This document shows, in pieces, positions 19,511-62,300 of a stretch of DNA of 64,000 nt (its first letter is position 1; each line of letters starts with the position of its first letter). Position numbers and translations under genes: made by a program. The DNA is taken from NCBI GenBank assembly GCA_001724265.1, contig MEDY01000117.1, positions 1 through 64,000 on the forward strand. Direction: 5' to 3'. Source of the DNA: Rhizaria sp. SCN 62-66. Its lineage: Eukaryota. Under the pieces are notes generated by a model. It was not told the origin of the DNA, made no database searches, and saw only the letters and a list, made by a program, of their open reading frames with translations.

Positions 19511-21480
19511 TCATTGAGCCGCCACGTCAGCGAAGCAGAAGGTGAACGCGTCGACCCACATGCCCGACGAACCAGCCACGGCGACCAGTCCGCGTCCGTT
19601 GCCGCCCTCGGCGACGGCGGTGGGCGCGGAGCCCTGCTGCACGGGCGTGCCCAGCACAGGCGAGCTGTGGCCCTGCGCGGTGTGGAACCGCAGCGCGCGC
19701 ACGCCCACATCGTCGGCCCATACGTCGACGCGCGTGATCAGGTCGTCGGGCTGTAGAGAGAAGCTCTCCGTGCGGTCACCCTGCTCGGCGCCGTTGGACG
19801 AGACGCCGCTGTAGCCGAAGGCGAGGTCGAGCCCCTGCACCGTGGCAGGGTCTCCGTTGCGCAGCTTCACGGTCACGGCCGTGGGGAAGCCCCAGACGGT
19901 GTAGCACTCGTCGCGCGCAAAGCGCGAGCCGCCCGTGCCGCCGAAGGGCCCGCTCTCCACGGGCGCGCGGTCCGCCACGGGCTGCAGCGCGCCCGACGCC
20001 GTGCGCCGCGCGGGGGGGCCGCCCGCGGTGCCGGGCTGGGCGGCGGCGGCGGCGGCGGCGCCGTACGGGGCAGCACCGGCGGCGGAGGCAGGGGGGTAGC
20101 CGGGGTAGGGCTGCTGCTGGGGCGGGTAGCCGCCGGGCGGAGGGTAGTAGCCGGGCTGGGGCGGGTAGTAGGTGCCGGGGGGTCCGGGAGGGGCGCCGCA
20201 CGCGCCGGGGGGCGGGGGACCGCCATAGTGGCCGGGCGGGGGCGGGTGGCCGTAGTGACCGGGCGGGGGCGGGTGGCCGTAGGGCCCAGGCGGGCCGTAG
20301 GGGCCGGGGGGGCCGCTGGGGGGCCCATAGGGCGCGGGGGCGCCGTACGGCCCGGGGGGCCCGGGGGGCCCGGGGGGGCCATGAGGCGCGCCGTAGGGGG
20401 AATACGGCGCCGCGTACTGCGGGGGCTCCGCCGGCGCCTGCTGTTGCTGCTGCTGCTGGGGCACGATGAGCACGGTGGTGGTGGCGCCGCCAGTGCCCGC
20501 AGTGACGACGGGGACGGCGACGCCCTGGCTCGGCGCCGCAGCCGCCGCGGCGCGGTGGGCGGCGCCGGGGTAGCCGCCGGCAGACTGGCTCTTGACAATC
20601 GTGCTGCCAGCAGCCGGGGCCGGCGCGGCGGCAGGAGCGGCGGCGGCGGAGGGCCCGGAGAAGGTCTGCGACTGCGGGAGCGGCTGCTGCGGCGGCAGCT
20701 GGCCGGGCGCGGGGGAGAACATGTGCGGCGGCCCGTTGGCGGCGGCCTGGCGCAGCTTGTCGGAGAAGTTGAGCTTCACGATAAGCGTGCCACTGGGCGC
20801 GTTGCGCGAGTTGTACAGCGCAATCTGCTGCGGGATGCCGTGCGTCTGCGGGAGACTGTTGATGAGCGGGACGCTGCCGCGGCCGAGCACAGTGTCGGAG
20901 CCGATCATGACCTTGTCGCACACCTCGAAGGTGAGGTAGGGCTGCGCGCCGTCCAGTGTGAAGGTGAAGCGCGCGTTCAGGTCGAAGTGCGGGCCGTGGC
21001 CGGAGCTGGCCGCTGCGAGAGAGGAACACAAGGGCAGGAGGTGACAGATCAGGCGTGAGTGCGGACAAGCAGGAGGCGACGATGCGAAAGTGCGATTTAT
21101 GGTGAAAGCAACGAGGGGGGCGGGTCAGGTGGTCTTTGGAGGCAGAAATGAAAGACTATGGTGATAGAAGCTTGAGAGTGTTAATGCGGATGGGAGACGT
21201 ACGTTTAGAGGGGACGTTAGCAAGACCACAAAGGACCTTGACGTAGGGCTTGCGCGAGAAAGTGGACTTGCCATCGTTAAACGTGACACCAGTGACCTCA
21301 GCACTCAGGAAGCCCTAAAGAACACAAAGCAAGCGCACATCGTAGTCATGTGAAAAAAATACCGACAATTACAGAAATAATACGTTCGGAAGCAGCGTGC
21401 GGATTAGAGTGGTGCTGGATAAACCGTGTTGGACGTACGACAAGGTTTGCCGCATTCGGCCGGGGAACTTGGCCCGGCAT
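19511..21480 (-). CDS. C2 domain + Pro/Gly/Tyr-rich linker + jacalin-like lectin domain protein (paralog A); exons 21480-21439, 21314-21203, 21012-19511
   Basis: The spliced N-terminus GFLSAEVTGV...KPYVKV...FTFTLDGAQPYLTFEVCDK..GSDTVLGRGSVPL is C2-like. The C-terminus GPFGGTGG...ESFSLQPDDLITRVDV...ALRFHT...GLVAVAGSSGMWVDAF is jacalin-like. Both introns are GTACGT...AG and phase-consistent. Stop is TGA. Confidence 0.8.
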
Positions 21481-27320: not shown

Positions 27321-29110
27321 ATGTCCAACATTAAGGTACGTCTATTCTTTTTCTTACTGTCGAAAAATCGTCGTTTGTGCGCATGGGAATGCGTTTTCTG
27401 GTTTATCGGCACCACGTCGCTGAGTTCGCGAGCAGGAGACTCGCCGAGATATCTCCCTATTTCGCCCTATTACCGGCGCGTAGTCCACTATTTGGCAATA
27501 GTAACCAATTAAAGACCTATTTCTATTGTCTGGAGCCGACCTCCGTTCACGGAAACACGTACTTAAACAGCTCTATTCACCCTATTTCTGGCTTGCTCAC
27601 CCCCCCTTGCCTCCTCTATCCAATATCCGGTTCGTCGGTCGGTCTGTTGACTGCTTTTTCACGTTGTTGCACTCGCCACCGATCGCTGCCACAGGGTACT
27701 CTTAAGGTTTCCGTCCTCGAGGCGAAGCTTGCCATCGACGTCTCTGGCGTTCTCGGCTCGCAGGACCCCTACTGCCGTCTCGTCATCGGCCAGGTCCAGG
27801 TCAAGACCAAGACCTGCCCGAAGGAGAAGTCCAACCCTATCTGGAGGCAGGAGTTCAACTTCTCGCTTCACGGCGCGGAGGCCTACCTCACCTTCGAGGT
27901 CATTGACGAGAACGTTGGCACCGACGAGCTCATTGGCCGTGGCACCATCTCCCTCGCGGAGGCCCCCCGCAACGCCGAACCTGAGTGGTATGACATCCAC
28001 ACCATGAAGGGTCGTCCCGCCGGCAAGATCCGCCTCGCGCTCGACCACACCCCTCCTGGTGGCAAGCCCGCTCCTGCCGCTGCCCCCGCCGCTGCTCCTG
28101 CCCCGGCCGCTGCCCCTGCCCCCGCGCCCACGCCCCAGTATCCCCCTCAGCAGCAGCCCGGCTACCCCCCTCAGCAGCAGCCCGGCTACCCCCCGCAGCA
28201 GCCCGGCTACCCTCCCCAGCAGCCTGGCTACCCGCCCCAGCAGCCCGGCTACCCCCCGGCTGCCGGCTACCCCCCGGCCGCTGGCTACCCCCCGGCCGCT
28301 GGCTACCCGCCGCAGCCCGGCTATCCCCCGGCCGCCGGCTACCCCCCTCAGCCCGGCTACCCGCCCCAGCACTCGCCCCACGGCCACCACCACGCCCCCC
28401 ACGGCTACCCGCCCCAGCAGCCCGGCTACCCCCCGGCGCCTGCCGCCTACGGCGCTCCTGCTCCCTATGGCGCCCCTGCTCCCTACGGCGCGCCCGGCCA
28501 GCCCCCGGCCCCCTACGGTGCTCCCGCGCCCTACGGCGCCCCCGGCCAGCCCCCCGCGCCCTACGGCGCGCCCGCCCCGTACGGCGCCCCCGCGCCCTAC
28601 GGCCAGCCCGCGGGCTACGGCCAGCCCCCGCGCCCCGCGGGCGGCCGCCGCAACGCGTACAACCTGCAGATGTGCACGCGCGAGACTGTGACGCGCGGCG
28701 TCTACGGCGGCAACGGCGGCTCTACCTTTAACGCCGACACGTGCTTCGCCACCTTTGGCTTCCCCACCGCTGTCGAGGTCCACCACGGCCGCTACGTCAA
28801 CGGCATCAAGTTCCACTACGGCACCGCGGGCGTCTCGACCCTCGCGGGCGCGACTGCGCAGAACTCTGACACCTTCGCGCTGGGCCCCAACGAGGTCATC
28901 ACGCAGGTCGAGATCTACGCCGGCGACTACGTCGAGGCCATCAGCTTCCACACCTCCGAGGGCCGCGTCTCGCAGCGCTTCGGCGCCCAGACCTCCTCGG
29001 CGCGCCTCCGCAAGGCCGAGGCCGACGGCAAGGGCCTCGTCGCCGTGTCTGGCCGCTCGGGCTCCTGGCTCGACGCCCTCACCTTCCACTTCGCCGGCCC
29101 CGTTTACTAA
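27321..29110 (+). CDS. C2 domain + Pro/Gly/Tyr/Gln repeat linker + jacalin-like lectin domain protein (paralog B); exons 27321-27335 and 27695-29110
   Basis: MSNIK|GTLKVSVLEAK...SQDPYCRL...NPIWRQEFNF...FEVIDENVGTDELIGRG is a C2 domain. The C-terminus GVYGGNGG...FALGPNEVITQVE...GLVAVSGRSGSWLDAL is jacalin-like. Intron 27336-27694 is GTACGT...CAG. Stop is TAA. Confidence 0.88.
28130..28630 (+). repeat. Coding tandem repeats: PGYPPQQ(Q), GYPPAA and YGAPAP / YGAPGQPPAP units
   Basis: Repeated cagcccggctacccc and tacggcgcNcc units are visible in the DNA and in the translation. Confidence 0.9.
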
Positions 29111-40478: not shown

Positions 40479-42439
40479 TCAAAACTCCTCCTGGTCCTCG
40501 ACGTCATCGCCCCTGTGTTGCTGCTGCGCTTCATCGTGCACTTCGTCCTCGTGGTAATAGTTCTCCTCCTCATCGACCACGTGTCCGGTGCCATCGCCGT
40601 CGCCGAGCTCGGCCGCGTGCTGGTCGATGGTGCCTGCGCCAACCACGGCCGCCTCGGCCTCGTCCGCGACCTCCTCGCTCTCGGCGCCAACGGCAACACC
40701 ATGCCCGGCCTCGGCCTCAGCCTCGGGTTCGGCCTCAGCCTCGGGTTCGGCCTCAGCCTCAGGTTCGGCCTCATGGGCTGCGGAGGCCTTGGAGTCGTGC
40801 CCACCGGCACTCGCACCTGCGCTGGCGCCTGCGCCAGCATCGGCGGCCGCGGCGGCTGCGGCGGCGTCGGCAAGCGACATCCCGCCCATCTCGTCATCGG
40901 CGTCGCCGCCAAGGTGAGCAGACTCAGCGCTGCCCGCACCGTGGGCGTCCTCAGCGTGTGCGTTGTCGGCGTTCGCGTCTGTGTCGGGGTCCGGGACGTA
41001 GAAGTCGTCACCTTCGTCAGTCTTGTAGAGCAGATGCAGGATCTAGCTTAGGATCGGGTCCGTGCTCCCGGCGGCCTCGGCCTCCTAGGTACGTGTCGGT
41101 CGGAGACAAGCGGCAAGACAACGGTCAGTCGATCGAAGGAGGGGCAGCAGTGAGAATGAGAGGTGAGTTGTTACTGGAATAAAACGTCCTTAATGACATT
41201 TTAGAGAAAATTAGTTACAAAAATATCGACAGTATGCGAGCTTGAATCTATCTTGATGTTCCAAGGCATCCGAATTGACGTGTTTCACTCTTAGTCGTAC
41301 CTGGCAAAGAATCTCGACGTCACGAAGCTTGTCGTAGTACGCCCGCGCCTCGCGCTCCACAACCGGAATCGCGCTCTTGAGCTCCGCCAGTCGGGTCTGC
41401 GCCTTCGCAGCCTCTGTACTGTTCGCAGCAGCGCCAGCCGCGCCAGCGGCGGCGCGGCCGGCAGCAGAGCCGGCGGGGCGGCGTGCGGCGGCGGCGGGCG
41501 AGCCCCCCGCGGCGGCAGCCCCACCCGCGGCGGCGCCCGGGGCGCGTGCGCGTGCGGCGGCGGCAGTGGCGCTGGGGGCGCGGGCAGCGGCAGCGGACCC
41601 CGAGGAGGCAGGCGCGGCGCTGCCAGCGCGGGGAGCACCGGTGCTTGCCCCGGCGGCTGCGGGGAGCGCCTTGACAGTAATCTTGGCGTCCTTGCGGCGC
41701 TGCACGGCGTCGTAGGGGCCCTGGTAGTGCGCGTCGAAGTAGGCCTTGATCCACTGGAGGAACTCGAGGTTGTCCTGGAAGCGCGCCTTGACGAGCTTGG
41801 CGACGTCGATGTGCTTGTTCACGCCCTCAGCAGTGAAGACGGACTGCAGAATCTTGTAATTCGGCAGAAACTCGTGCTCAACTGTACATGTGATGAGTAG
41901 CAAAAGCATATAAAGCGATGTTCGTGATGCATGTGAGCAAGTCAAAGCGGTGTTCGGGGAAAAGGATCTGGGCCGAAGCGAGTCACGAAGGGAGACATTG
42001 CAAGGAGAGGAACGTACGCTTGGCGTTAAAGTTCACTTTGCCGAGAGGGACGCGGCCAGGGAAAACGCTGTCCATAATCTGGCAGTACAAGGCACCTACG
42101 TTATTCGAAAGGGCACAGTGACAAAGTGGGTAAAAGCGTGATGAGCACGCGAATGCATTTTGAGAGAAAACACATACATCTCGCCACAGCCAAAGTTGGT
42201 ACATATTAAACTCGGATATAATATGCAAAACAAGTGGAAAAACTACACAGGCATTGATTCAAAATGAACATATGCATTAATAATTCGCCCGGGATGAAGA
42301 TGTTTGGGGATATCATGTTGCCCCTTCGGGACATAGACGTACCGCTTGCAGCTTGCTCCACGTGGGTGTACCCAAGGTGAAACATTTCGTTGACCCACTC
42401 AAGAAGAGCCTTTTTACCCAAATTCGCGTGCGCAGACAT
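40479..42439 (-). CDS. EB1: Microtubule end-binding protein EB1/MAPRE; exons 42439-42343, 42095-42018, 41881-41301, 41084-40479; in-frame TAG at 41043-41045
   Basis: CH domain LLEWVN...[15 protein letters not shown]...KVNFNAKLEHEF..NYKILQ...[14 protein letters not shown] domain [45 protein letters not shown], and an acidic tail ending EEF. All three introns are GTACG...AG with consistent phases. Stop is TGA. Confidence 0.95.
40709..40772 (-). repeat. 18-nt coding tandem repeat (EAEPEA, about 3 copies) in the EB1 acidic tail
   Basis: ggttcggcctcagcctc is repeated on the + strand. Confidence 0.8.
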
Positions 42440-43276: not shown

Positions 43277-43348
43277 ATGTACAACAACAATGTCGGCGCC
43301 AACCTCGGCAACGGCGTCAGCAACTTGCCCATGATGTCGTCGATGCAA

Positions 43349-43393
<45 letters not shown>

Positions 43394-45396
43394 CAACATC
43401 AACAATAGCAACTGTCGCAGCCGATGCCGCAGTCGATGCAGATTCCGCAGCAGCACATGCTCAACAACATGTACAATCAAAACTCGCCGCACGCTAACGC
43501 AAATCATAGCAACAACAACAACTCTGCCCTCGCCGCCGCCAACGCCGCCGCGGCCAACGCCGCCGCGGCCGCCGCCGCTGTCGCTAGCCTTACCCTCGGC
43601 GGCCACCACAATCATAACAACGGGCTCGGCCTCAGCCAGAGCCCTGGTCCCGGCAATGGTCCCAACGGCCTCAACACCGGCTTCGCCTACCCCAACTCTG
43701 CTGCCCACGGTCACCACGCGCACGGCCACAGCCACACCCACTCTGGCCTCACCCAGGGACACGGGCTCCCGCACGCCCACAGCCATAACCAGGGCGGCTT
43801 CGGGGCGGATCCGATGGCGCTGGCGAGCATGAACCTCATGGGCTCCTACAACGCCGCCGGCGTCGGCCGCGTGTCTCCCGGCCCCGTCGGCGCACTCTCG
43901 CCCGCCAACGCCAGCGCCGGCGGCGCGGGCGGGCTGGGGGGCAGCACGATCGACCACTACGCGCTCGCGGCTGCGGTCACGGCCGCTAGCGCCAACGCCG
44001 CTGCCGCCAACGCCGGCTTCGGCTACGCCAACGCCAGCTCACTGGCAGCGGCGGCAGCAGCGATGGCAACGGTCACGGCCGCGGCCTCGAGCAACCACAA
44101 CAGCATCATCAGCGGGCCTAGCATCGGCAACAACATCAACGGGCCTCGTGGTGCTGCTAGCGGACGCGGCAACAACAACAGTAATATCGGCAACGTTGGC
44201 CGCTTGTCCCCGGGCCCAATTCCGCAGCCCTCTGGCTCCCAGCAGGCCCTCCAGTCGCCGCAGCTGCAGCAGCAGCAGCAGTCGCAGACTCAGCAGCAGA
44301 TCGATCCCCAGTCCATTTTTGTGCGCAACATGCCGCCCGACGTGAACGAGACCATGATCCGGAACTTTTTCATGTCGGAAGGCCTCCCTGTGCAGAGCGT
44401 TAAGATCCTCACCGAGGACATCAACGGCAAGGACCGCATCAAGGGCGCGTACGTCAAGTTCACCAACGCCGAGGACGCGGTCAGGGCGCTGCGTCTCGAC
44501 GGCACGCCGATGCGGCCATCGGAGTACAACATGAAGATCGTGGCTAAGTACATGATCAACTCTGGCCGCCGCAACAACCCCACGGGCGCGGCGGCCCCCG
44601 GCGGCGGGAACGCCAGCGGCGGTGGCAAGCAGGGCGGCGGCACCGGTCGCCGTAACTCGCCTGGTCCTCACAACGCCGGCCCCAATAACAACAACAGCAG
44701 CAACAACAACAACGGCGACCTCAGCAGCCACTACAGCGGTTCGCCGGGCCCGTACGGCCTCGGCCAGCAGTCCCCCGGTCCCTACACCGGCAGCGTCGGC
44801 CACGGCGTGTCCCCTGGGCCTTACAGCGCCGCCGTCAGCACCGGCTCGCCGGGCCCGCTCGCCGCCGGCGGCGGCGCCGCGGTGTCCAACACGTCCTCGC
44901 TGTCTCCCGGCCCGTCCGGTCAGACTCACGGCCACGGCCACGGCGGGCTCGGGCGCTCGATCACCGCCGCGGCGCCCGCCGCGGCGTCGGGAATGCGACC
45001 GCAGCGCGTGCCGCCAATGCCGCAGATGCAGACGCGCACGCCCTCGCCCGGCCCCCAGGCCGCGGGGGCCTGGAGTGGGGCAAGCGTGCAGCCGCCGCCG
45101 CAGCAGCAGTCGCTGAGCGAGCTGCAGCGCCAGGTCGACTTGTTGCAGCAGCACCAACAGCATCAACAACAGCAGCAGCTGCAGTTACAGCACCAGCTGA
45201 GTCGCGGCAGCGGCAGTGGCGTCGGCAACAACAACGGCGTCACCATGCCGACGCGGCTGGCGTCGTCGCTGTTGATGCCGGAGAACTCTCTCTCTGCGCA
45301 GCAGCAGCAGCAGCAACAGAACGCTCAGCAGCAGTACCAGCAGCAGCAACAGCAGCAGCAACAACAGATGCAGCAGCAGATGCAGCAGCACATGCA

Positions 45397-45433
<37 letters not shown>

Positions 45434-46937
45434 CAACAGCAGCAGCAGCAGCAGCGCAACGCGATGCGTGGCAGCGGCACTGACATCCCGGGCCTCGTGC
45501 AACAAGCACTCACTTCATCAAACTCGCTGAATGCGTCTTCGCTGCCGACGCAGAGCGCGCCGGACTACCCGAACAACAACATGAGCAACCTGCTCCATAT
45601 CAACACCAGCGGCAACAACGGCCTCGGCAACGGCAATCTCAACGACGGCAGCGTCCCTGGTGGCCTGGGCCTCGGCCTCTCGATGGGGCTCGCGATGGGC
45701 GGCGTCACTTCTGGCGGCGGCCTCAACGACTTCTCGACGTTTGACTCGGCACTGGCGAGCCCCACCGCGGCCGCGTCCACGAACGGCCTCAACGGCAAGC
45801 CCGGCAATGGCGGGATGCCGCACCGCAGTTCGCTGTCTTCCACGCTCGCCCTGGGTCACAACAGTCACAACGCCGCACACGGCAGCCACCTGAGTGCGCC
45901 GTACTCGCTCACGGGACCCGGCAGCAACAGCTACGACAGCCGCCTGCACTCGAGCGCCAGCGCCGCCGCGCCGGGCAGCTCCGCGGGCTCTGGCACTGGC
46001 ACGGGCACGGCGGCCTCGTCGGTGCACGCGTCGCCGCTCTCGTCGCCCTCGGCCGTTGCGATGGCGTCCTCTGCCGCCGCCATGGCTGCCGCTGCGGCCG
46101 CCGCCAGCGCTGGGTTCAACAGCGGCCAGCCCGGCGCCACCACGGCGGCCACCGCAGGGCTCACCGTGCTGGAGGACGACAACGAGGGGCGGCTTAACTT
46201 TGATGTCCCTGCCCGGAGTCCCTCGCTGTCGTTCTCGCACAACGCGCACGGCCAGGGCCACTCTGGCGCGCACGGCATGATGGGGCACCATATCGGCCAC
46301 GGCGTCGGCCTTAATGGCTACGGCAGCGGCGCCGGCCTGGGCGGCGCGGGCGTCGCGCCGAGCGACAGCGACGCCAACTGGAACGGGTTTCAGAGCGACT
46401 GGACTGGTAACAACAACAGCAACAACAACAACAGCAGTGCCAATACTAGCACGAGCCACAACAGCTCGACCGCGGGCATCTCGACCAACGTCGCCACGGC
46501 TGCCGCGCTCATCTCCCAGCAGCACGGCGGGCTCGGCGGCTCGACCGCGGCCATGTCCGAGCACGGCGGCGCCGCGCTAAGCTCGATGCACAGCTCCGAG
46601 GCCGACGCGCCGAACCCGGCCCTGCGCGCCGCCGCAGCCGCGCGCCTGTCGGCCACGGGCGTGTCTGGGCTGGGCGCGCTCAACGCCGGCCTGTCGCCGT
46701 CGCCGCCGTCGCCCGCGTCATCGCTGGGCTCAGCCAGCGCGCTGCAGCACCAGCAGCACTTGCAGCAGCAGCAGCAGATGGCCGTCGTCGGGCACAAGGG
46801 CCGGCTGCAGGACCTGCCTTCGGCGCGCAACGCCAGCGGCAACTACGGCGCCACGTTCCAGCAGATGCAGCAGCTGCACCAGCAGCAGCAACAGCAACTT
46901 CAGCAGCAGCAGTTCCAGCAGCAGCAACAGTTCCAAT

Positions 46938-46968
<31 letters not shown>

Positions 46969-48061
46969 GCAGCAGCAGCAGTCGTGGCAGTTCCAGTCGT
47001 CGCCCTACGGCAACGGCGGCTACCAATGCGAGATCCTCTCCCCGCGGCCCGTGAACCCGGCGTTCGACCGCCTGCTGCTGGATCTCAACGTGCCTGACAC
47101 GCTCGAAGACGGCGTGCGGCGCGCGGCCGACTGGGTCACCGAGAACGCGAGCGCGCCGACCGATGACGGTGTGGTGCCGGCGCAACCAGTGATCAGGGTG
47201 CTTAACGCCGTCGAGGCGGGCGTCAAGGCCACGGCTGTGCAGGCGCAGCAGGCGCAGCTGGAGATGCAGGAGCAGCGCGAGTTGGTGCAGCAGCAGGAGC
47301 AGACGCAGAAGATGCACACGGTCGAGATTCTGCTTTTGCTGCGCGAGATCATCCTGCTGTCTGACCCTGCGCGTGCGCGCGGTGTGTACAGCATCCTGCG
47401 CTCGAGCGCGGTCGAAACGCTCAACAGTGAGCCAAATTACCGGTTCACGAACCGCGACGAAGAAGTCGCGCTGATGCTCAACGACGGCGCGAACCAGCAG
47501 TCGCAGCTGCAGCAGCTGCTGCAAGAGCAAGCCCGCCAGGAAGAGCATATCCGCAAACAGCTCATGAAACTCGAAGAGGACCGACAAAACCGGGCGCAAA
47601 CGGGCGCAGACGGCAGCTCCCCTGCCCTGCACACCCACGGCGGCCACGCGGGCAGCCACCCGATGTTCGACGTCGACGGCATGCTCAACCGCAGCACGGA
47701 TCCCCGCGGCAGCGGTAGCGGCAGCAGCACTGTAACGGGGCTGCTCGACACCAACTCCGGCTCTGGCTCCGCGTCGGCTTCCGTTGTTGACGGGCTGACG
47801 GTGTCTCTGGCGGCGCGCGCGCTCAGCAACCACAGCAGCGTCCCCGCGGCCACCACGGGCGGCCCGGCCACGTCGCCCACCAACGCCTCGACCAGCATGA
47901 GCAGCAACGGCGCCAACGCGCTGGGCGCCGCGGCGGGCACTGAGCTCGACAGCAACCGCGGCAGCGGCAGCATCCCTGCGCGCGCCGGCGTCGGGCTCAG
48001 CGCCTCTCCGGGGCCCTTCGGCTCGCTCATGGCCGACATGTGGTCGAAAGACGCACACTAA
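43277..48061 (+). CDS. Poly-Q/N low-complexity RRM protein of 1594 aa when the two in-frame TAGs (43406-43408 and 46937-46939) are read as sense
   Basis: ATG 43277, ORF 43424..46939 and ORF 47051..48061 share one frame and are separated only by TAGs inside CAG/CAA runs. RRM at about 44309-44545 (SIFVRNMP...KGAYVKFTNAEDAVRALRLDG). Stop is TAA, followed by AT-rich sequence. Confidence 0.85.
45299..45453 (+). repeat. CAG/CAA poly-glutamine tract (further tracts at about 43346-43411 and 46860-46981)
   Basis: Directly visible trinucleotide runs in frame with the RRM gene. Confidence 0.95.
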
Positions 48062-50944
48062 GTTAGGCCTCAAGGGTTCACTACTTCAATGTTGCTGATC
48101 AGTTGCATGATGTGCCGCTAATTGCCGCTAATTGTCTAATTTTCTTTGTCACATCAATCCGCAAGCTATGCTACGATTACTGTCGCAATATGACACTGTT
48201 TCTTGACAGTGTACTGTGTATTATTTTCCCCCCTCCCACGCACACACCTGTATAATTCGTAGTTTTCGCTTTAGTTTTTGACATCGTTTCGCTATTGGTT
48301 TATACTTTGCTTGATACGATCCAATTTTTTATGTTGTACCAGAAAAAACAACAGTGTGTAATTTTGTGATATTGTCTATTGTTACATCTATCATTGCACG
48401 TTTGAAGTTGTGTTTTGTCTATTCGTATTTTCATGTGTCATTTCGTTAAAGCCATTTGCTTTTATTCCCCTCGCATTGCTATTTTTCCTTGAAATTTGTT
48501 CTCTCTCTTTTCCTCCCCTAACTATAACAACAACAATAATCGTAGTCGCTTTGCCACGCATGTCTTGGGGATGCTAATTGGTTCTTTTGTTTCATCCATT
48601 AATAGCTTAATGTTTGCCCGGCTTCGCCGTTTTAGTTTGTGCTTGTTTTTGTACGTCCTTAAATCAATAGTCTCGTTTCTCCCACAGGCAGCTTTTTTAC
48701 CCTCCACCACCCTCCCAGCTGCAGTCACACTCACCGTTCCTGTCGCTGTCTCTCTCGGTCATCGCCGATCCTGAACGACGAGCCGCTTGCGGCACTGCTG
48801 TTCCTCCCCATCGTGGTGCAGTCTCGCACGCTTTTATTATATGCATGTTACTTCAATGTTATGGATTTTGTCATTTACTTTGCCATTTGTTTTCTTGCTT
48901 ATCACCCCTTGGTTTCTGATAGCCAATATCCCGTATTATCTCCGTTATCGTAGTCGGTTGTTGATATCGCTCTTGTTCTCGTGACCACTCTCGCTATGCG
49001 TACATTCCGCTCTTGTACTTACGAGTACAGCGTCACCGCAAGTGTTAATGTGTGCATGGCTACGCGTTACAACAGCCGCTACTGGACTGTCCCCCAACTC
49101 CTCTCAGCGTTAGTCATCTTAGTCTCCGATTCCGTCATCAACTCTCCACTTCAACAAACATGTTTTCTCATCAACATCACTTATCCTCGTTAGATTCACT
49201 CAATTCTCATCAAATAATTCATCTTCGATAGTCTCATTCTCTCACACAAACACTCAGACTCGTCCTCTTACTCGTCTCACCTGCACGTCACATGCACACT
49301 ATCTCATCTTTTGTCACGCTGCTGACTGCTGCAGCCCTTCTCTTCTGCCACGCGCCTCGTGGCCACGTGGCGTGAGTTGTTCCTTGCGTGTCATTGTTGT
49401 GCTTGCGTCTCTGGCGATCTTGTTCTTGCCCGAGTGCGGCCGTGGCCCGCCCTTTGTCTCCGTAAGCGTTGTCAATCCCATGTCGCTTTGCATCTGTCCC
49501 TCCTGCTCCTTGGTGTATGATCTTGTCTCGATCCTTGTACTATCACAGTCCCCGACCCATAAGCAGCCCCGCAGTCATATCGTGCACTCTCCCTGTTCTA
49601 AGGGCGAGCGTGACACGTGAGCGCGCGCGTGCGCCTCCCTTGCCACTTATCACTGCGTGCTGCTGCCGAACGGACCTTTTTTTATTCTACGATCTTCTTT
49701 GCATAGCACCGCTTATGCGCTGTCTTTTTCACACACGCACCACCAATTCCCCTGTGCGCCACTTACGCTTGGTTCTCAGTCACGGCCCTTCTGGTTTGCC
49801 GTTTCTGCGTCAGTGTTTTGGTGTTTTGGGTGCTCGCTGCGGTGTTACTGTGAATGCTTGCTGTCTATTTATCCCAACCCACATTTTCTCTCCCCACTGT
49901 CTTTTCCGCCCCTTCTTGATCCATCTCTCACATGCTCGCGTCAATGTCAATCGCGTTTCTTTTCACACCCTCCACTTGCAATTGCGCGTACATTTAGACT
50001 TACGCGTCTTGTCGCCTTTTTCCCCGGACCTCTTCCACTCTTTATTTGCACGCGCTCTTCCGTCAGCACAGATGCACTGCCTTCGACGCATTCCATTACC
50101 CACAGTCCGCCAGCATTGTATTTAACCCCTCTTTCAACCGCCCCCCGTGGTCACGCTCGCGTCAATCAATCGTGGATTGTGGCTCTTTGTTATGCTTCAT
50201 ACTTCAGCTTACTTGCTTATCACTTTCTCCGCTCATCCCCAACATTCCTTCACTCATGTCATCTCACTGTCATCATCGGTGTCATGACTATTCCTTTGCT
50301 GTGCTGACTTGTAGCTGTCGCTACCGTCTGCTAACAATCAACCACAGCCTTCGATCACAAGTCGTGCGTCACAGCGCGAATCCCCCCTTTGACGCTCCGT
50401 TCTCGGATGCGCGCCGCAACTCTTGGCACATGCAAAACCGTTCTTTCTGTCTCTGATGATGCCGCCGGGAAGACTAATATTCGTGCGGACTAGTCTGCAG
50501 TTTGATTCCCACTAGCATCTCTCTTGTTAGTTGTTCCCTTTTCTTTTTTATGTGTCGTTTGTTTGTGGCTCTGTTAAATTGGTTACACCAAACGTAAGCC
50601 TGAAGCCCTGCGGAGGAGTTCAGGCGTCCTGGTACTCGTTAGTAGCGATTGACGAGGAACCCGATTTCGATTTAAATAATAAATTACTGTTATCTTCAAC
50701 TTATTTCCGCGCTCATATCTAGGCCGTCTTTTTAAAGGCACTAAACTTTGAAAAACGACATAGTCTGAGTCAAATTTGGACCGAAAAATGAACCACAGTG
50801 CTCACGAAGAGGAGCTCGCGGTTGACTGCTCCGACCGATTTCTCGACATTCCCATCGTCAAGTCGCTTCTCGTTTAAACACCGAGCGGTTGTTGTGGTAA
50901 TCTTTTAAACCCGTGTTTGAAGACACGCGAAATAACGTTGTAGC

Positions 50945-52378: not shown

Positions 52379-53076
52379 ATGTCTTCTGGGGCTGAGAACA
52401 TCGATGTTCAAGAGAGCACCACAAGTGACTTGACAATCGACGACTCCGTTAAGGTACGTTCTCCCTTCATGCACTACACTAACCCCCGCTGATCACAAGG
52501 CTGCCTCTCACCGGTACACACATTTATGTAATACTGTAATCACTTGCCCTTGCGCAGCGCACGGTTCAAAAAATCCCTCTGTGTAGCATCCGCGCGGGCC
52601 CGCTGGACGACGCGACCGAGTGGACAGCCCGCTTGCGGCAGGAGCTCATCGCTCTCATCGCGTACGTGCAGATGAACAAGGCCAACGACAACGACTGGTT
52701 CTTTATTGAGTCTAACCCTGACGGCACGAAGTGGTCCGGCAAGTGCTGGTTCGTGCACAAACACGTCAAGTACACGTTCAAGATGCAGTTCGAGATTCCC
52801 GTGACGTACCCGGCGTCGCCGTTCGAGGTCGTGCTGCCCGAGCTGGAGGGCAAGACCGTCAAGATGTACCGCGGGGGAAAGATCTGCCTCTCGCTGCACT
52901 TCAAGCCGCTGTGGGCGCGTAACGTGCCGCGCTTCGGCATCGCGCACACGCTCGCCATGGGGCTGGGGCCCTGGCTGGCCGCGGAGGTGCCTTTCATGGT
53001 CGACAAGGGACTCATCACCGAGGAGGTCTTCGGTAGCGGCGGCAAGGGACAATAGCAACAGAACGACGCGGTTTGA
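52379..53076 (+). CDS. UFC1: Ufm1-conjugating enzyme; exons 52379-52453 and 52558-53076 (ends at 53055 if the TAG is a stop)
   Basis: IPL....AGP....W..RL..E...[55 protein letters not shown]. Intron 52454-52557 is GTACGT...CAG. The tail reads CAA TAG CAA CAG AAC GAC GCG GTT TGA. Confidence 0.96.
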
Positions 53077-53364
53077 GGTCACTTGGACTATTTGCCTTCG
53101 CAACTGACCTGGCAAGCAATGGCTTGGTGTGTCATCATCAGGCCACTCGAGACTACATAGTATTATTTGAATCTCATGAATCGCGGTAAAATAAAAACAA
53201 ATCATTGTATTGTACAAATTACACATAATTAAAGAGTTACATTTTTTAAATTCGGTTCAAAAACGACCCCTCACATTAGCAAGTTCTGACGCGATAGGCA
53301 GCAGTTGCCTCCGCGCATGCGCAAGATGAGTGAGTGACTGATGGAGTGAGTTTGCAGTCGCGAA

Positions 53365-56300
53365 TTAGAAGAGCGCGCGGCACATGGGGCAGGTGCTGTG
53401 CCCGGATGACTCGAACCACGTGAGCAGGCAGTTTGCGTGGAACGCGGCGGCACATGTGTGGCACGAGAGCGACGGTAGCGCCACCACGCGCGCCGCGGCG
53501 CCCGATGACGAGCCCGACACGTGGACGGTGCTGAAGCAGATGGGGCAGGCCTCGATGCCCTCGAGGCGATGGCGGACCACGCCGGCCCACACCTGCAGCG
53601 CGCGCAGCAGCGGTGCGCCCTCGCCCGGGGCCGTGGCGCCGCGCATGAGCGTCTTGACCACGGCCAGTCGCGCGCGCAGCACGAACGACGCGCCCAGCGC
53701 GGCCGAGACCTCGCTGCCGCTGCTGCTGCCACGGTCGTCGCCGCCCGCATCGGAGCTCACGGCAGAGGCGGAGGCGTCGGCGGCGCCTACGGCCGCGGCG
53801 AGCATAGCGCGCCCGACGGCGTGCGTCATCGACACGGCCACGCCCGCGGCCGCGGCGAGCCCGCTGGCCTGAAACGGGAAGCCTGGCGTGGGGCGCAGCG
53901 TCAGACACAGCACCACGTCGCCGTCGTTGCCCGCCGCGCCCGCCGCGCTGCCGGTGAACTTGGTCAGCAGCGCCTCTGCCTCGGCCGACAGGCCCGTCCC
54001 GCCCTCGTCCGCCGCGGCGGCGGCGGCCGCGGCGGCGGCGGCCGCGGAGACGTGAGTCGGCGCGCGCAGCGCCATGGGCTTGGGGGTGAGCCCGAAAGCC
54101 TTGGCGGCCTTGCGGACCGCGGAGGCCGCGCCGCCGGTGGCGTAGACGGCGCGCAACATGGGCGCCGAGGGGATCGACGTCGGCGCGCCGGAGATGCTGT
54201 AGCTCGCGAAACCACTGTTGCTGCTACCGCTGCGATGAGACGGCGTGGCAGAGGACCACCAGGTCGCGGCGGGGCCAGAGCTGGCGGCAGCGGCGGCGGC
54301 GGCGGCAGCAAGCGCGGCGTTGGCTGCGGACACAGGCGGCAGCAACGGCGTTAGGCACTTGTACGACGCGTTGTTGTCGCCCGCGGCCGTCGCCGCGAGG
54401 AGCGCCGCGGCGACCTTGGCGCGCTCCACGACGGCGACGGTGGCGATGGCGGCGTCGTACAGTCCGTCCTGGCAGAAGACAGCGAACGCGGCGTCGGCGT
54501 CGGCCACGGCGGCCGCGGCGGCGGCGCGCGCAGCGATGCCCGCCGCCGCGCCCGCGCCCCCAAGGCGCCGCAGCGTCGGCTCCAGCAGCGTGGCGGCCGC
54601 GGCGTCGGGGGCAGCCCCGTGCAGCCCGAGCCGCGCCGTCGCGGCCGCGGCCTGCGCCTTGGCCGTCAGCACCAGGGGGGCAAACGCGCGCGCCATCAGC
54701 AGCGACGGCGAAGCCACCGCCACGTCGGCGTCGCTCGCACCCGCGCCCCCAGAGGCGCCAGCGCCGGCGTTGGACCTGCTGGCCAGCAGACGCGGGTTCG
54801 CCGCGGCCAGCAAACGCAAATGTGCGACGGCGAAGGCCGAGGTCGCGTTGGCGGTGGCGCGTGCGGCGGCAGGATCGCTGAGCGCGAGCGCGAGCAGCAC
54901 GCGCCACGCGACAGGACCGAAAAACTGCGTCTGGAAGACAAGTTCGGCCTCCTGCGCGCGCAGCTTGGCCAGGCGCGCGGCCGCGGCCGGGGACGGGGCG
55001 CCGCACGCCAGCGCGGTCGCGGCGGCGGCGGCCGCGGCGGCGGCCGCGGCGGGGCGGAGGCGGGCGCCGCGCGATGCAGAAGAGCCGGAGCCGGAGCCGG
55101 CGCTGCTGGCGTTGGCCGCGGCCGCGGAGGCGCGGGGCGGCAGCGCACCGTCCGCGAGCGCAACGACAGCGGGGGCCGCAGTCTCGGTCGAGTCATCGGT
55201 GTTTTTGACGCCGGTGGGCTCGGCGACGGCGACGGCCAGCGGCGCCCTTGCAAGGCCTGCAGCCTCCGGGGCGGCGGTACACGCCGTGTGTGAGTTGTAG
55301 AGGAGCGCGGTCATTGACGTGACGTCAAGCCTAATGCTGTCGTCGTCGCCCTCGCTGTCGTCGTCATCATCCGAGGACGACGGCGATGACGCAACGTTGG
55401 CGACGACCACGCCGCCCCGGCCGCCCTTGCGCTTGCTGGCGGTCTTGGCACGCGCCCTGCGCGCCTTGGCGGCTGCAGACCGGGAGCCCCGCGCCGCCAT
55501 GGTCTCGGTCGCGGCGGTGATGGCGCCCGAGAGCGCGGTCCAGCGCGGGCCCAGCCCGGTGCCCACGGCGACGGAGCGCAGAAGCCGCGCCGCGACGGAG
55601 CCCGACGCGAGCAGCAGCGGCCAGTGCCAGCGCCACGCGCCCGCCTCCCACCCGGCTACGGAGGACTCGGTTGAGACGGACTGTGTGGCGGCGCGGTGCG
55701 CGGCGAGCGACTCGCGGTAGCTGATGGCGAAGTACCCCATCGAGGCGTCGGTGGGCGCGACGGCCCCCGCGTGCAGCGAGAGAAGCGTGACGGCAGTGCG
55801 CGCGACGCCCACCGCGCCCGCCGTGTTGGCCGCGACGGCGGCGGCCACGGCGGCGGGCGAGGAGAGAGTGACGTCGCAGGGCGCGTTGGGCGCGGCCTGG
55901 GCCAGCGCGGCCACACTCGCGGCATGGCTGTGCTGACTCGCCACCTCATGGCTGCCGTGGGGGAGCTGCGGCGCGGCAGCGACAGTGAGCGCGGTAGGGA
56001 CGGTACCGAGGAGCGAGTCAAGCAGCACGGCGCCCCACGGCGCGTCCTCGTCGTGGTCAATGCCGCTGTCATAGGAGTAGTCGTCAGTGTCACGGCCATC
56101 GTTGTTGTTGAGACCGCTGCAGAGCGCTGCGACTGCGTCGTCATCACCAGCGTCGCAGTCGCCGTCCTTGCACTCGACGCTGTCGGTGGTGATCGCGCCA
56201 GCAGTGTCAGCGGCGCAAGAGTAGTCGGGCAGCGCGTGCGCCGTCTTGCCCAGCGCGACGTCAATGCCGAGCATCATCACTACGCTCGCCGGCGCCGCGG

Positions 56301-59300
56301 CCTCGACCGCAGCCGCCGCGGCCGCCGCGACGCACCCGGCGTGGCCGCAGCGGCCGCAGCCCGCGCCCGCGCCCGCGCCGCCGGCGAGCCCTGAGCTCAC
56401 GGCCGCGGCGACCGCGGAGGCGGCGGAGCGGACCGAGGCCGCCGCGGAGCCCAGGGCGGCGCGCGCAGAGCTCCACAGACCGGACTCAACCTTCTCAGCA
56501 TCAGCGCCAGCATCCGCCTCAGCGTCGGCGTCGTCAGAGTCCGACCCGTCGACGACCTCAGCGGTCGCGGTCGCGGCAGCGGCCTCGGCGGCAGCGGCCT
56601 CGGCGGCAGTGGCCTCGGCGGCGAGCCCGGCCTCCGCAGCGGCCGCCACTACGACAGACTGCGCGGCGGCGACGAGCGCGGCGTGCGGGAACGCGCACGC
56701 CAGCGCGCGGCGCGAGTAGCTCACGGTCACGTGTTCCGTGGCTTCCGCAAGGAGCCGGTGCAGCGGCGCGTCCGTCGGCAGGCGCAGCGGCAGCGCGGGC
56801 GCCAGCAGCCAGCGGCGCGCATCGCTCGCGGCCGCTGCTGTGGCCGTCGCGGCATCACCGGCGCTGAAAGCGCTCGTGGCGCTGGTCGCGGAGGCGAGCT
56901 CGATGACGGCGGCGCAGGCGAGGAGGTACGCGCGCGCTAGGCACCACGGCGGCAGCACCGCGGCCGGATAATACGGCGCGTCGGCCTCGTTGCCAGCGGT
57001 GCTGACGCTGGCGCTGGCGCCCGCGCTCGTGGCAGACGCCGCAGCAGAGGGAGTGGCAGCCTCGGGCGCGCTCAGAGGGGCGGCGTTCGCGGCGGCGTCG
57101 GCGGGCGAGAGCAGCGACGCGTACATAGGGTTGCTGATGAGGTCGTCGTCACCGCCATTGCCGTCAGCAGCGCTAGCAGCAGCGGTGGCAGCGGAGTTGG
57201 AGTCGCTCGCGAGCGTGAGCCCAGGCAGGGCCAGGCCCTCGCCACTGCCGTCCGCGTCGCCAGTCTTGCCAGCGGCGTCCTGACTGGCCTCCGCGGTGCC
57301 GACAGCCACGCCGGCCGCGACGCCCCAATAGTAGCTGGCGGCGACGCCGCCGCCGTAAGCGTTGCCGTCGCCGGCGCCGACCCCGGCCTCGGCCGCGGCG
57401 TCGGCCTCGGCCTGCGCGGCGGCGGCCGCGGCCGCGGACAGCGCCCCGCCGCGGCCGCCGCGCGCGGTGAGCGCAGCGCTAGCGGCCGCAGCGACCGCGG
57501 CGGAGGACGAGGTCGCGGTGCGCAGCTTGGCGGTCTCGCCGAGCGGGCCCGGGGCCGGGCGGTACAGAGCCAGACGGCGCAGCGCGTGCGGCAAGTACCG
57601 ACCGGCGCGCTTGCTGGGGGCTGCACTCGCGCTCGCAGCGGAGGAGACTGCGGCGGCAGCAACGGTAGGCAGCACAAGGCGCAGTAGCGGCCACGCGACG
57701 CCCGCGGCCAGCGCGGCGGCGGGGTGAGCCAGCAGCGCGATGAGCGTGTCGACGGGGGTCGCAGTGGAGGCGGCGCTGCTGTTGCTGTTGCTGGGCGCTA
57801 CAGCGGCCAGCACGGCGGCCGGCAGCGCAGTCGCGGTCTCACCAGTCGCGCTGCTGCTACTGCTGGACGTGAAGTGCGAGAGAAGAGTGCCGACCGCGAC
57901 CGCGGCGCTCGTCAGCGGCGCGGCCACAGAGTTTCCTCCAGAGGCAGTGACCGTGAGCCCGGTGACCGTGAGCGCGGTGACCGTGAGCGCGGCCGTAGCC
58001 TGGCTGAACGGACTGGGGATGGCGACAGGGCATTGCCACAGCAGCAGCGCGGCTGCGTCGCCCTCGCTCTCCGACACGGCCGCACTCACCGCGTTCGCTG
58101 CGTCGCTGGACGCAGAGGAGCCAATGACGGCGGCGGCGGCGGCGGCGGTAGGCGTGTGGGAGGGCGAGGCGGCGGGGGACGTGGCATAGAGCGAGCGCAG
58201 CACACGGTGCAACGGGGCATGCGCGCAGGCGCCGACCGTGGAGAGCAGCGGCGCGCGCGACAAGGCCGCTGCGGAGCCACTCTGGACCAGCGCCTTCGCC
58301 ACGCTCTGCCCAGTCGCGCCCTCACCGGACGCGGACGCGAGAGACTGGATGGAGGCGGGCAGCGTGGTGAAGGCGGCGAGCGCGAGCAGCAGCGCGCGGG
58401 CCGCGGCGTCGTTGCGCGCGCGCGTGCACAGCGCAGCCGCGGCGGGCGCGGCGGCGAGCGCAGCGGCCACAGCAGCGGTGCCCGTGGGCAGCAGACTCGC
58501 GCCGAACGCGGAGCCCGCAGCGACGGCCAGGGCGCTGGGCGCGGTGTAGCTGTGAGCAGCGAAGCCGGTGAAGGACGACCCGGCGGCGGAGACGGAGAGC
58601 AGCGAGCCCGCAGGCACCAGGATGCCCTCGCCTGCAGCAGCATCGATCGCGTCAGCGTCGTTGTTGGCAGCGACAGAGACGGATGAGGCAGTACGGTGCA
58701 GCTCGGCGGCGCTAGTGAAGATGACAGTCACGACGGCGGCAAGCGCGGCGGCGACTGACGCGGACGGCGCAGCCGTAGCGCGGGCGGCGGAGGCGGAGAG
58801 CGTCTGCAGCAAACGCAGTAACGCGTGTGCGACAGCGATGCGCGCGTCTAAGGGGTTCTTAGACAACGCGCTCGGCAGACACTTAGACTCGCCCGCGATG
58901 GCGGCGGCGACGCGTGCGAGTGCCGCAGCGGCAGCGCGGGAAGGAAGCTTCGCCGCAGCCGCAGTCGCAGCGGCCACAGATACGATGGCAACGTTAGTAG
59001 AAGCTGCAGCGGTCACGGCAGTAACGGTAGCGACCACGCTGTCCACGTCGATGTTGCCACTGTTTGCTGCCACGACGCCCGCCTTCACAGCGGCGACATA
59101 GGCCTCGCGCGCGCTGGCCGCGAGCTCGGCGCTCGACACGCGACTCGACTTCGATAGCGCCTCCGCAGCGGCTGACTGCGCAGCGTCGCGCGCGCGGGAC
59201 ATGGCGGCGACCGCGCAGTCCTCCGCAGCCGCCACGGCTGCCACAGCGCTGTTACTGTTGCCGCTGCTGTTCAGGAAGCGGCTCGCGACCGCGGCGGCGT

Positions 59301-62300
59301 TGGCGACTGCGGTGAGTGGCGCGACCCGGCGGCGGCCTCCGCAGGCGCGCGCGTTGGGCAGCAGCTCGCCCGCGTCGTCAAACTGGTCCGAACCGTAGTA
59401 TTCGTTGCCGCCATCGGGCAGCCACCATCCGTCGCCGTCGGCGGCCTCAGTCAAAGTCTCGGTGCTCGCGTCCGCGTCGGCGTCAGAATCAGCGCCTGCA
59501 TTGGCGAGAGCAGCGGTGAGGCCCTTAGTGACAACGGCGCGGCCATCGACACGGCGGTACTTAGCGGGCAAGTACGTTTGCAAGTCCTCCAGCAGCAGCG
59601 TCTCTGCGGCAACAACCGCGGCCGGCGGCGCACTCGCAGTGTTGTTTGCACCAAAGCCAGAGCCAGAGCCAGAGCCAGAGCCGGAGACGGAGCCGGAGAC
59701 GGGGGGACGCAGCGCGGCGGCGGCCGAGGCGGCGGCAAAGGGGCGCGCAGCGACGGCGAGGATGACGGCGACGGGCGCAAACGCGGCCCCAAGCGGGTTA
59801 CTCTCACTGCAGACAGCGCTAGAGCTCGAGCTGCAACTGATTACGGCGGTGTTGTTTGCGAGAACACCGACGCCCTGGAGCAGCGCGAGCAGCGGGGCGA
59901 ATGCGGGGAGACGCGCAGGGGGGATGACGCCGTTCGAAACAGACGCCACGGTGACGGACTTGAGTCCCTCACTCGCGCCCGCAGTTGCAGTGTCGCAGCG
60001 AGCGTAGCTATGGAAGAGGAGCGGGGTATCCGTAGTGACGGCCGCGGTTTCATGATCCCGCACCGCGTTGTTGAACGCCGTCGCGCCCGCCATCGCCCAC
60101 AGCGCGTTCGCGGCCAGCGCGACCGTGGCCGCAGCGGAGCAGGGCATCCAGCCCGCCGCACCGGCGGCGCCCGTGGCCGCCGCGGCCGCCGTGGCAAAGG
60201 CCGCGAGCGAGGGCGCCGACGCGGCCGCGGTAAGCGGAGGCAGCGGCAGCGGGTGAGCTGGCGCCCCGGCCGCGGCGCGCTCGGAGGCCGCCGCGGTGGG
60301 CAGCGCGGCGCCGGCCAGCGCAGCGGCGGCGAGGCCCGAGTTTAGGGGGTTCGCGGGGGACAGCAGCGACAGCGCGGCGGCGAGCACGGGCGCGGGCGCC
60401 GCGGCCGAGGCGGCGGCGGCCGCGGTGGACGCGGCGGCAGCGGCGGCGGCCACGGCGGCGGGAGACGCGGCGTGCTCGCCGGCGGTCAGTATGCGCGCCA
60501 CGACGGAGCCCAGCGCTGCAGTCGCACCGCTGCTGCTGGTGCTGCTAACAATGGCTGCAGTGCTGCGAGAATCGACAACGGGCGAAAGTGCGGGCAGCAG
60601 CGGCACGGCCTGGCTGCCGCTGTCGGCGGTCACTGCGACAGTCGTGGCGGCCGTGAGGGCGGCGGCGGGCTCAGTGGCCGCGGTCGTGACGTTGATGACG
60701 GCCTCCATCGCGATCAGGTCAGCCAGCACCATCGCAGGCGCAACGGCGTAACTCACTGCACTGGCGCCGAAGCTAGAGTTGGCGTTGGAGGCAGCGGCAG
60801 CGGCCAGGACACGCGGGAGACCGAGGCCGAGCAGCACGGCGCGCCATACAGGGCCGTGGAGCGCGCGGAGGCGTGCGGCGCACTCGAGCGCGCACGCGGG
60901 CGACACGGGTACAACAGCCCCGTCGGCAGGCACGGTCGAGAGTGGCGACGCCAGGGAGGACGACGCCGCCGCAGTTCCATCGATGTTGGTGTTGCTCGAG
61001 AGTGCGGTGAGCAGAGCGCGGGGAATCGCGCCCTGCGCGCCGGCCAGCAAAGCCAGCACGTACGCGCGCGGCGGCAGCAGTGCGGCCAGCACAGTCGCCC
61101 ACGCCGGGGCAGCCTCGCCGCCACACACGGCCGTATCGCGCACCTTGGTGTCGGCGCCGGTGTGCGTGAATGACTCGCAGTGCGCGCGCTCGCCGTCGCC
61201 GGCCAGGCCGACCCCCGCCTCGCCACTATGGCCCGCCGAAGCGGCGGCAGCGGCGGCAAGGAGCGCGGCGGCGCGTGCGACCCAGGCCTCGCCCCACATC
61301 TTTTGCGGCAGCAGCGCGGGCGCGGCGGCACCGAGTCCGGCCTCAGCCTCCACGTCGCCGCCCTCGGTCCCCACAGCGCTGGAGCCAGAACTAGCGGAGG
61401 CGAGGGTGGCGAGGGTGGTAAGCAGCACGCGGTCGCGGCGCGGCATGTCGCGGAGGTGTGGCACCAGGGCCCACACCGCTGCAGATGCGCTCACGGTCGA
61501 GGACGCGAAGGCGCCGGAGCCCGCGCCCACGGTCACTGCACTCGCGCTCGCGCTCGTCGTGGCAGCGGCGGCGATGGGGAGCAGAGGCAGCGCGGGGTGG
61601 CAATGCAGCTCGGCGCGGGTGAGGTGCGCCGCAAGCGGGCGCGCGGCAGCAGCGAGCGCGGCGGCCGGCAGCGCGCCAGTGGGGGCAGCGGCGGCCGCGG
61701 CGGCGACGGCGGCGGCGGCCGCGGCGCGCAGGGCGGGGTCGGGAGCCGTCCACTGCGTCGTGATGAGGGACGCGAGCAGCGCATTGGCCGCGGTCACGGC
61801 AGCAATGTTGTCGCTGCTCTTGTGCGCGCCATTGAGGGCCGCGGCGGCGATGATGGGCGTGAGCGCGGTGATGATGGCGGGCAGCGCGGCAGGGTGCACG
61901 CCCGTCACGGCGGCGGCGCGCGCGGCGGCGGACCTGCCGAACGACGTCGTCGACACGTTGTAATAGTAGCCATCGTCGTCGTCGTCGTCATCCTCGCTGT
62001 CGTCGCCGTCCTCGTCTTCGTCCTCGTCCTCGTCCTCGTTGCCGTCGACGTCGCGGCTACGAGAGCGCGTGAGAGCAAAGCCGCCGCCCGCAACGCGCTG
62101 CAGCCGCGCGGCGACGCGGGCGGACGCGGCGGGAAACAGCCCGTGGCAGCGCAGGGCGCCGGTTAGCGCCTCGGCAGCGGCAGCGACGGCCTGGTTCGCG
62201 GCGGCGGCGCCCGCAATGGGCTCACTGCTAGACGCCGCAGAGGCAGAGGCAGCGGCAGCGGCGGAGCCGGGAGTCAGCAGCAGACGCAGCGTGGCCGTGA

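Follow-up and report, generated by a model that had tools for sequence, protein, structure and literature searches.

Does an in-frame TAG that is followed by further coding-like sequence still mean stop, or has it become a sense codon? This question is raised by the plus-strand locus 43277..48061 in the 64,000-nt stretch of contig MEDY01000117.1 (Rhizaria sp. SCN 62-66), which we analysed as a whole and call the window. At this locus, the initial annotation had joined three segments interrupted by two TAGs into one gene for an RRM protein and had proposed that TAG is a third Gln codon. Our analysis favours the same reading: TAG would specify an amino acid, most likely Gln, with TAA and TGA as the stop codons, and 43277..48061 would be a single Gln-rich RRM gene. 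We put the probability of this reading at about 0.78.

If TAG is read as Gln, the frame starts with the ATG at 43277, ends with the TAA at 48059-48061 and corresponds to a protein of 1594 amino acids (aa), which is rich in Q, N, A and G; only two codons are read otherwise than in the standard code. Under table 11 the same frame is represented by two open reading frames (ORFs), 43424..46939 (1171 aa, ATG start) and 47051..48061 (336 aa, GTG start). The first TAG (TAG 1; 43406..43408, codon 44) lies inside a poly-Gln run in the context CAACAATAGCAACTG, and the second (TAG 2; 46937..46939, codon 1221) in the context TTCCAATAGCAGCAACAG. The positions of both, in frame within CAA/CAG runs, and the single 1594-aa frame are as the initial annotation described them. 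The Gln run extends 14 codons beyond TAG 2, and altogether 373 coding-like codons follow in frame, of which the first 108 are free of ATG. The designation as RRM protein was also correct: a single RRM is present at residues 347-410 (44315..44506), where the match to RRM_1 (Pfam PF00076) has an E-value of 1.2e-7 and 31.9 bits, above the cut-off of 20.7. Among solved chains, RRMs from poly(A)-binding proteins come nearest to this domain (best E 5.2e-10). The protein could not be placed in an orthologous family.

An open frame is weak evidence in GC-rich DNA, and codon periodicity was therefore taken as the test; on the opposite strand over the same place, a 447-aa ORF is found (46730..48073). 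The GC content at codon positions 1, 2 and 3 (GC1/2/3) was 0.36/0.36/0.95 in the 22 codons from ATG 43277, 0.65/0.54/0.87 in 43424..46936, 0.73/0.46/0.89 in the 94 ATG-free codons 46982..47263 and 0.65/0.51/0.86 in 47264..48058, as compared to 0.29/0.43/0.46 in the 3' flank of the gene. Further, according to codon likelihood the RRM frame tops all six frames in all three segments, with margins of 0.25, 0.67 and 0.41.

The five introns that were mapped outside the RRM gene, all AT-rich and of the GT-AG type, measure 104-216 nt and have a GC content of 0.30-0.50; the 5' end of every mapped intron is GTACGA, GTACGT or GTATGT. In the RRM gene, GTAYG (Y, C or T) occurs at two sites only (44449 and 44752), neither of them close to a TAG, and there is neither a 60-nt window with a GC content below 0.43 nor a stretch resembling the mapped introns. 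Introns over the two TAGs were rejected on these grounds. Since the periodicity is continuous, the GTAYG sites are distant and an AT-rich stretch is missing, neither introns nor a separate gene downstream are likely, and the claim of coding-style sequence without splice signals on both sides of the TAGs holds.

The latter possibility, that 43424..46939 has a true TAG end and that 47051..48061 stands for a gene or exon of its own, is what a table-11 gene caller would suggest, as it yields the 336-aa ORF with a GTG start, which is stored as a protein of its own. We regard it as barely credible. Eukaryotic genes are not expected to start with GTG, and no ATG appears before 47264; the Gln run crosses the TAG; and the periodicity starts directly past it. 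The lack of a spacer before the GTG, pointed out already in the initial annotation, was evident from a third-position GC content (GC3) of 0.89 directly beyond TAG 2, with no AT-rich spacer or splice signal, while the flanks beside four sampled genes are AT-richer. Nor does the stop preceding the 336-aa ORF stem from an error in one assembly, because the same ORF is present on seven contigs and a variant with its first letter changed on one more.

Two TAGs in poly-Gln runs, taken alone, could also reflect a fresh CAG-to-TAG nonsense mutation or readthrough in a Gln context. They are insufficient for a conclusion, and therefore independent evidence was sought elsewhere in the window. Such evidence was found in the EB1 gene on the minus strand. 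Its exon 2 (40479..41084) comprises 201 codons and a TGA and ends with an acidic ...QEEF tail. An intron with canonical splice sites (41085..41300, CAG/GTACGA ... CCTAG/GAG) separates it from exon 1, which ends with ...EILCQ at 41301. The in-frame TAG (41043..41045) is located 14 codons into exon 2, after the residues DPILS, inside the conserved C-terminal EB1 domain, and the next 187 codons are open until the TGA. Its neighbours are AGC and ATC, with no Gln codon on either side.

In an alignment with nine EB1 homologues, the C-terminal domain is matched both before and after the TAG. Eight of the nine have E-x-F/Y at the C-terminus, and the EB1 of the window ends with ...QEEF. A profile was built from eight of the nine homologues, omitting the near-duplicate P0135. 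Its score was 203.6 bits when the TAG was read through, 182.3 bits when the protein was cut at the TAG (a gain of 21 bits by reading through) and 177.4 bits for exon 1 alone, and the profile alignment spans the TAG. GC1/2/3 beyond the TAG is 0.85/0.45/0.75 vs 0.50/0.50/0.47 in the 3' flank.

Besides this gene, the usage of stop codons in the whole window is informative. Our gene-model set, a small sample, comprises 17 genes with 15,795 codons, some small exons being omitted. TAA terminates nine of these genes, TGA eight and TAG none, although the last count is partly circular because the RRM gene and the UFC1 gene (see below) end in TAG under the standard code. The two TAG "ends" are both within Gln runs, and the frame stays open from there to a TAA or TGA. 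Whatever code is applied, TAA or TGA terminates all 15 genes that do not have TAG as their first in-frame stop, and the TAA of the DHX8 gene coincides with the conserved C-terminus of its homologues. No other coding-like ORFs of at least 70 codons ending in TAG were detected in the window. Five in-frame TAGs are present, distributed over 4 of the 17 genes, and TAA and TGA do not occur internally. The initial annotation had proposed to count TAG versus TAA in poly-CAR tracts (R, A or G); in the window, CAR codons flank three in-frame TAGs on both sides, and an in-frame TAA or TGA was found nowhere. The base following the 17 true stops is G in 11 cases, A in four, T in two and never C; with purines following 15 of the 17 stops, the context for termination is a strong one. 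After the five in-frame TAGs, the base is C (four cases) or A (one case).

These numbers bear on the possibility that the standard code applies and that recent nonsense mutations have turned the RRM, EB1 and hydrolase (see below) genes into truncated alleles or young pseudogenes in which the downstream coding signal has not decayed. With 158 CAG codons in the RRM gene, CAG-to-TAG, a single transition, is its commonest single-step route to a stop, and a nonsense mutation there would in all likelihood have the same appearance; purifying selection beyond the TAGs cannot be demonstrated because the available copies are near-identical. However, four to five independent events in 4 of the 17 genes would be required, every one creating TAG and never TAA or TGA, together with zero frameshifts in 15,795 codons. 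Moreover, EB1 would be among the affected genes, and the TAG in UFC1 would have arisen precisely within a run of Gln codons closed by a TGA. We therefore consider this explanation hardly probable.

The UFC1 gene (52379..53076, plus strand; Pfam E 3.3e-77) has its TAG (53053..53055) near the end in a Q-TAG-Q-Q run, in the context GGACAATAGCAACAG. It is the first in-frame stop and is inside the run CAATAGCAACAG, with the TGA seven codons on (53074-53076). The UFC1 gene is overlapped by a 228-aa ORF on the minus strand (52540..53226). At this locus the wrong strand can be selected, because ORF callers may ignore introns.

The fifth TAG (5853..5855, minus strand, context GTCGTCTAGCAACGC) is codon 60 of an alpha/beta-hydrolase gene, in a probable N-terminal extension. 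The frame leads from an ATG at 6032 across the TAG (5855-5853) into the domain with coding periodicity: GC1/2/3 is 0.66/0.37/0.69 and 0.68/0.58/0.76 on the two sides of the TAG and 0.51/0.48/0.45 in the flank. A homology search with the extension returned the sequence itself only, and no Pfam match was found in it. The extension appears dispensable for the fold, because PDB matches start at residue 182. The ORF beyond the TAG is present on four contigs. This in-frame TAG site is no more than probable.

Additional TAGs were flagged by a codon log-odds scan with flanks of 40 codons. Those at 39160 and 21158 were rejected as they sit in a 5' leader and in an intron or splice site, and other TAGs picked up by scans are likewise in leaders, introns or splice sites. 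The scan discriminates poorly because antisense frames share the high GC3.

Which amino acid is encoded by TAG? Gln codons flank the TAG on both sides in three of the five cases, on one side in one case and on neither side in one case. We calculated a neighbour-context likelihood from the frequency of Gln neighbours of each amino acid, pooling the genes into two classes (the RRM gene and the other genes); a per-gene version was dropped since it was dominated by pseudocounts. Gln was best, at least 100-fold better than any other amino acid. Relative to Gln, the runners-up were Cys (1e-2), Met (6e-3) and His (4e-3), values which are influenced by pseudocounts, and lower likelihoods were obtained for Glu (6e-4), Leu (2.5e-4) and Lys (1e-4). 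The EB1 column is the sole alignable TAG column. The nine homologues have R, K, Q, D, E, Q, Q, H and R at this position, all of them polar, which speaks against a hydrophobic residue. Gln accounts for three of the nine, two of which are near-identical, and thus the column is compatible with Gln and not decisive. With the EB1 and UFC1 TAGs, the absence of TAG from the 17 gene ends and the neighbour-context likelihood all pointing in this direction, the proposal that TAG is a Gln codon is well supported but not proven. Gln is also the usual outcome when UAG is reassigned (PMC5304391, PMC11687900).

Nevertheless, TAG could be a sense codon for Leu, as in the rhizarian exLh, or for Glu, Lys or Arg. 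The residues R, K, Q, D, E and H in the only alignable column would agree with some of these, and UAG encoding Leu is known from an uncultured rhizarian (PMC5304391). A tree of DHX8, for which 37 rows were picked from 120 listed matches, placed the window and its nearest relatives in an 11-row clade together with two chlorarachniophytes (96 in the Shimodaira-Hasegawa-like approximate likelihood ratio test), but it is a single-gene tree with biased sampling. On the other hand, the neighbour context disfavours Leu, Glu and Lys strongly, the EB1 column contains no hydrophobic residue, and a single transition suffices to turn CAG into a TAG within a CAA/CAG run. Further, in-frame UAGs number 384 in 71 genes of exLh (PMC5304391) and five in 17 genes of the window. 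An amino acid other than Gln is thus very unlikely.

Several observations weigh against a reassigned TAG and have to be considered. First, reading through is strictly required at TAG 2 and at the EB1 TAG only. A short upstream ORF could end at TAG 1, the next ATG (43424) being five codons on; the UFC1 TAG by itself is ambiguous and could be a terminator; and a start of the hydrolase at ATG 5519 fits the fold too, so that its TAG could end an upstream ORF. For EB1, splicing to the AG of the TAG itself would preserve the reading frame and bypass the TAG. This AG is not the first one past the pyrimidine tract, and the 13 codons which would be lost have a GC3 of 0.92 and are worth 4.9 profile bits. 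Second, if the standard code is applied, 2 of the 17 genes (RRM and UFC1) end in TAG, which is an unremarkable share. Third, all copies are near-identical and thus give no depth of conservation, and the region beyond TAG 2 lacks homologues: among 1.84 billion representatives, the search found its own 336-aa ORF and one weak match (E 7.3e-4) only. Fourth, the window provides neither a credible transfer RNA (tRNA) gene, including one for tRNA-Gln(CUA), in the ARAGORN and Rfam searches, nor eRF1 among its 17 genes. The sole ARAGORN call, an 88-nt tRNA-Glu(CTC) at 62781..62868 (plus strand), is antisense to a giant ORF and probably spurious, since Rfam shows none there at gathering score. Finally, TAG is rare. 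It accounts for 5 of 569 Gln-type codons (CAG 501, CAA 63), while about 48 would be expected neutrally if the ratio of TAG to CAG equalled that of TTG to CTG (62/648, 0.096), and thus approximately ten times fewer are observed. Three of the five are in the context CAA-TAG-CAR, despite CAA being the minor Gln codon.

The last two points are those expected if the standard code is in use and the TAG stop is leaky in a Q-stop-Q context with C at position +4, so that a near-cognate tRNA-Gln would give rise to full-length in addition to truncated isoforms. CAA-TAG-CAR is present in three of the five cases and C at +4 in four of the five, and TAG is about tenfold scarcer than a neutral Gln codon would be. 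CAA-UAG-CAA is a readthrough context in plant viruses. In standard-code yeast, CAA-TAG-CAR is the context with most readthrough, and a stop flanked by CAA in Gln-rich mRNAs is decoded as Gln (PMC13192750). The full-length product, however, amounts to merely about 1.6-8% in yeast (PMC13192750). Readthrough as an explanation presupposes a leaky context around a codon which otherwise terminates. The EB1 TAG is between AGC and ATC, outside such a context, and yet it is followed by conserved, presumably needed sequence. As a terminator outside a Gln context, TAG was not found at all in the window, the 15 genes concerned all using TAA or TGA. In standard-code eukaryotes with GC-rich genomes, usually at least a fifth of the genes end in TAG. 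Based on this, leaky termination under the standard code is unlikely.

How could UAG be read as Gln in this organism? By analogy with reassignments restricted to UAG, decoding would depend on a tRNA-Gln with the anticodon CUA, which pairs with UAG and not with UAA; this anticodon differs by one base from the Gln anticodon CUG. Likewise by analogy, the recognition of UAG by the release factor eRF1 would be lost or weakened. The TAGs may have been derived from CAG by C-to-T transitions, which would be synonymous in such a code. Their scarcity could mean that the change is recent, or that decoding is inefficient and competes with termination, in which case TAG would be tolerated chiefly at places where termination is weakest or does no harm. 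It is tempting to speculate about an early or ambiguous stage of reassignment in a GC-rich eukaryotic lineage from which no variant code is known, in which TAG no longer serves as terminator while its decoding as Gln is inefficient against eRF1. In such a case TAGs would survive at about one tenth of the neutral level, because inefficient Gln decoding competes with eRF1, and they would do so mainly in CAA-TAG-CAR or near protein ends. This stage is a tentative suggestion and not our favoured one.

At the protein level, the part of the RRM protein beyond TAG 2 comprises 359 C-terminal residues (46982..48058) following the Gln run. They comprise a predicted helical region followed by a low-complexity tail and belong to no known family. 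For 46982-47650, modelled with AlphaFold2 from the single sequence, the predicted local distance difference test score (pLDDT) was 59 with predominating helices, and Atlas look-alikes of the region scored 0.80, which is noise level. Downstream of the RRM gene, between it and the LST8-like gene, about 2.8 kb (48100..50900) are AT-richer (GC about 0.47). Neither a coding frame that convinces nor a match in Rfam was found in this interval, and its size is unusual for intergenic DNA in the window.

The window contains no N and has an overall GC content of about 65%, with stretches of GC 0.6-0.8 interspersed with AT-richer ones; the exon GC3 of its genes is about 0.85. Housekeeping genes are present on both strands: those for DHX8/Prp22, EHD, an amidase, two C2-jacalin proteins and a dual-specificity phosphatase, and further those for EB1, an LST8-like WD40 protein, UFC1, uL16/RPL10 and a giant RING protein. 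These housekeeping genes and their few AT-rich GT-AG introns identify the window as eukaryotic nuclear DNA, which is known from contigs of the metagenome type. Its table-11 ORFs are present in identical form in ENA, MGnify and JGI/IMG data, on at most seven contigs, the longest of 106,170 bp. The nearest non-self sequences are at 84% identity for DHX8 and at 55% for EB1, and a scan of genome contigs revealed no further sequence of the organism or of a relative.

The two genes for C2 and jacalin-lectin proteins (19511..21400, minus strand, and 27383..29110, plus strand) are in opposite orientation with about 6 kb between them, and in the former the C2 domain is divided among upstream exons. The giant RING ORF (53365..63999, minus strand) is open for more than 3544 aa and extends past the edge of the window. 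A RING finger at its C-terminus is the only Pfam match, and its 3545 codons include no in-frame TAG. At the other edge, the region 3..3077 has a GC content of about 80% and long ORFs on both strands (1024 aa on the plus strand, 845 aa on the minus strand). The plus strand was assigned as coding from codon likelihood alone, and its ORF has no Pfam match.

The identification of a sense TAG in this DNA would be important for several reasons. A nuclear code that distinguishes UAG from UAA in meaning is known from a handful of lineages only, with ciliates in the majority, and if our reading is true, a GC-rich non-ciliate eukaryote with UAG as a Gln codon represents an additional independent origin. 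We found no such eukaryote in the literature searched, in which subscription journals are thinly covered. Further, annotation with the standard code would split or truncate genes of this organism, as exemplified by the stored ORFs of 336 aa and 473 aa. Last but not least, if TAG is truly rare and biased in its context, the organism would permit a direct test of the "ambiguous intermediate" route of codon reassignment.

The assignments proposed here are those of NCBI table 15, which has the same assignments as a UAG-only Gln code. Among the known systems, the codes in which both UAR codons became Gln, described for Amoeboaphelidium protococcarum, hexamitid diplomonads, Streblomastix, ulvophycean algae and many ciliates (PMC11687900, PMC6299283), have in common with the window the conversion of a stop codon to Gln. 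They differ in that TAA terminates 9 of the 17 genes of the window and is never found in frame, and the genomes of Amoeboaphelidium have a GC content of about 40% (PMC10608142), compared to about 65% in the window. Because of this GC content and the reassignment of both UAR codons, Amoeboaphelidium was rejected as the source of the DNA. The QXQ readthrough of yeast resembles three of the five TAGs of the window with respect to the flanking CAA/CAG, the C at +4 and the decoding as Gln. However, according to PMC13192750, it reaches a few per cent and affects all three stop codons in an organism which still terminates there, while in the window the effect is limited to TAG, no gene ends in TAG under our reading, and the EB1 TAG lacks the context. 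Rhizaria sp. exLh shares with the window the reassignment of UAG only, with UAA and UGA as terminators, and a loose phylogenetic neighbourhood of the two is possible according to the single-gene tree. In exLh, however, UAG is frequent and encodes Leu (PMC5304391), whereas in the window TAG is rare and its context points to Gln. The closest parallels are the nuclear codes with UAG alone changed from stop to Gln, which were reported for the fornicate Iotanema spirale, the ciliate Protocruzia tuzeti and two lineages of phyllopharyngean ciliates (PMC5304391, PMC11687900). In comparison to these, the window is GC-rich and non-ciliate with few AT-rich introns, and its TAGs are very rare and mostly adjoin other Gln codons. 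As in the codes of the Iotanema and Protocruzia type, UAG would be a sense codon, most likely for Gln, UAA and UGA would terminate, and UAG would end no genes. UAG as Gln codon with UAA retained as stop is a code variant which is already known, and what would be new here is the lineage.

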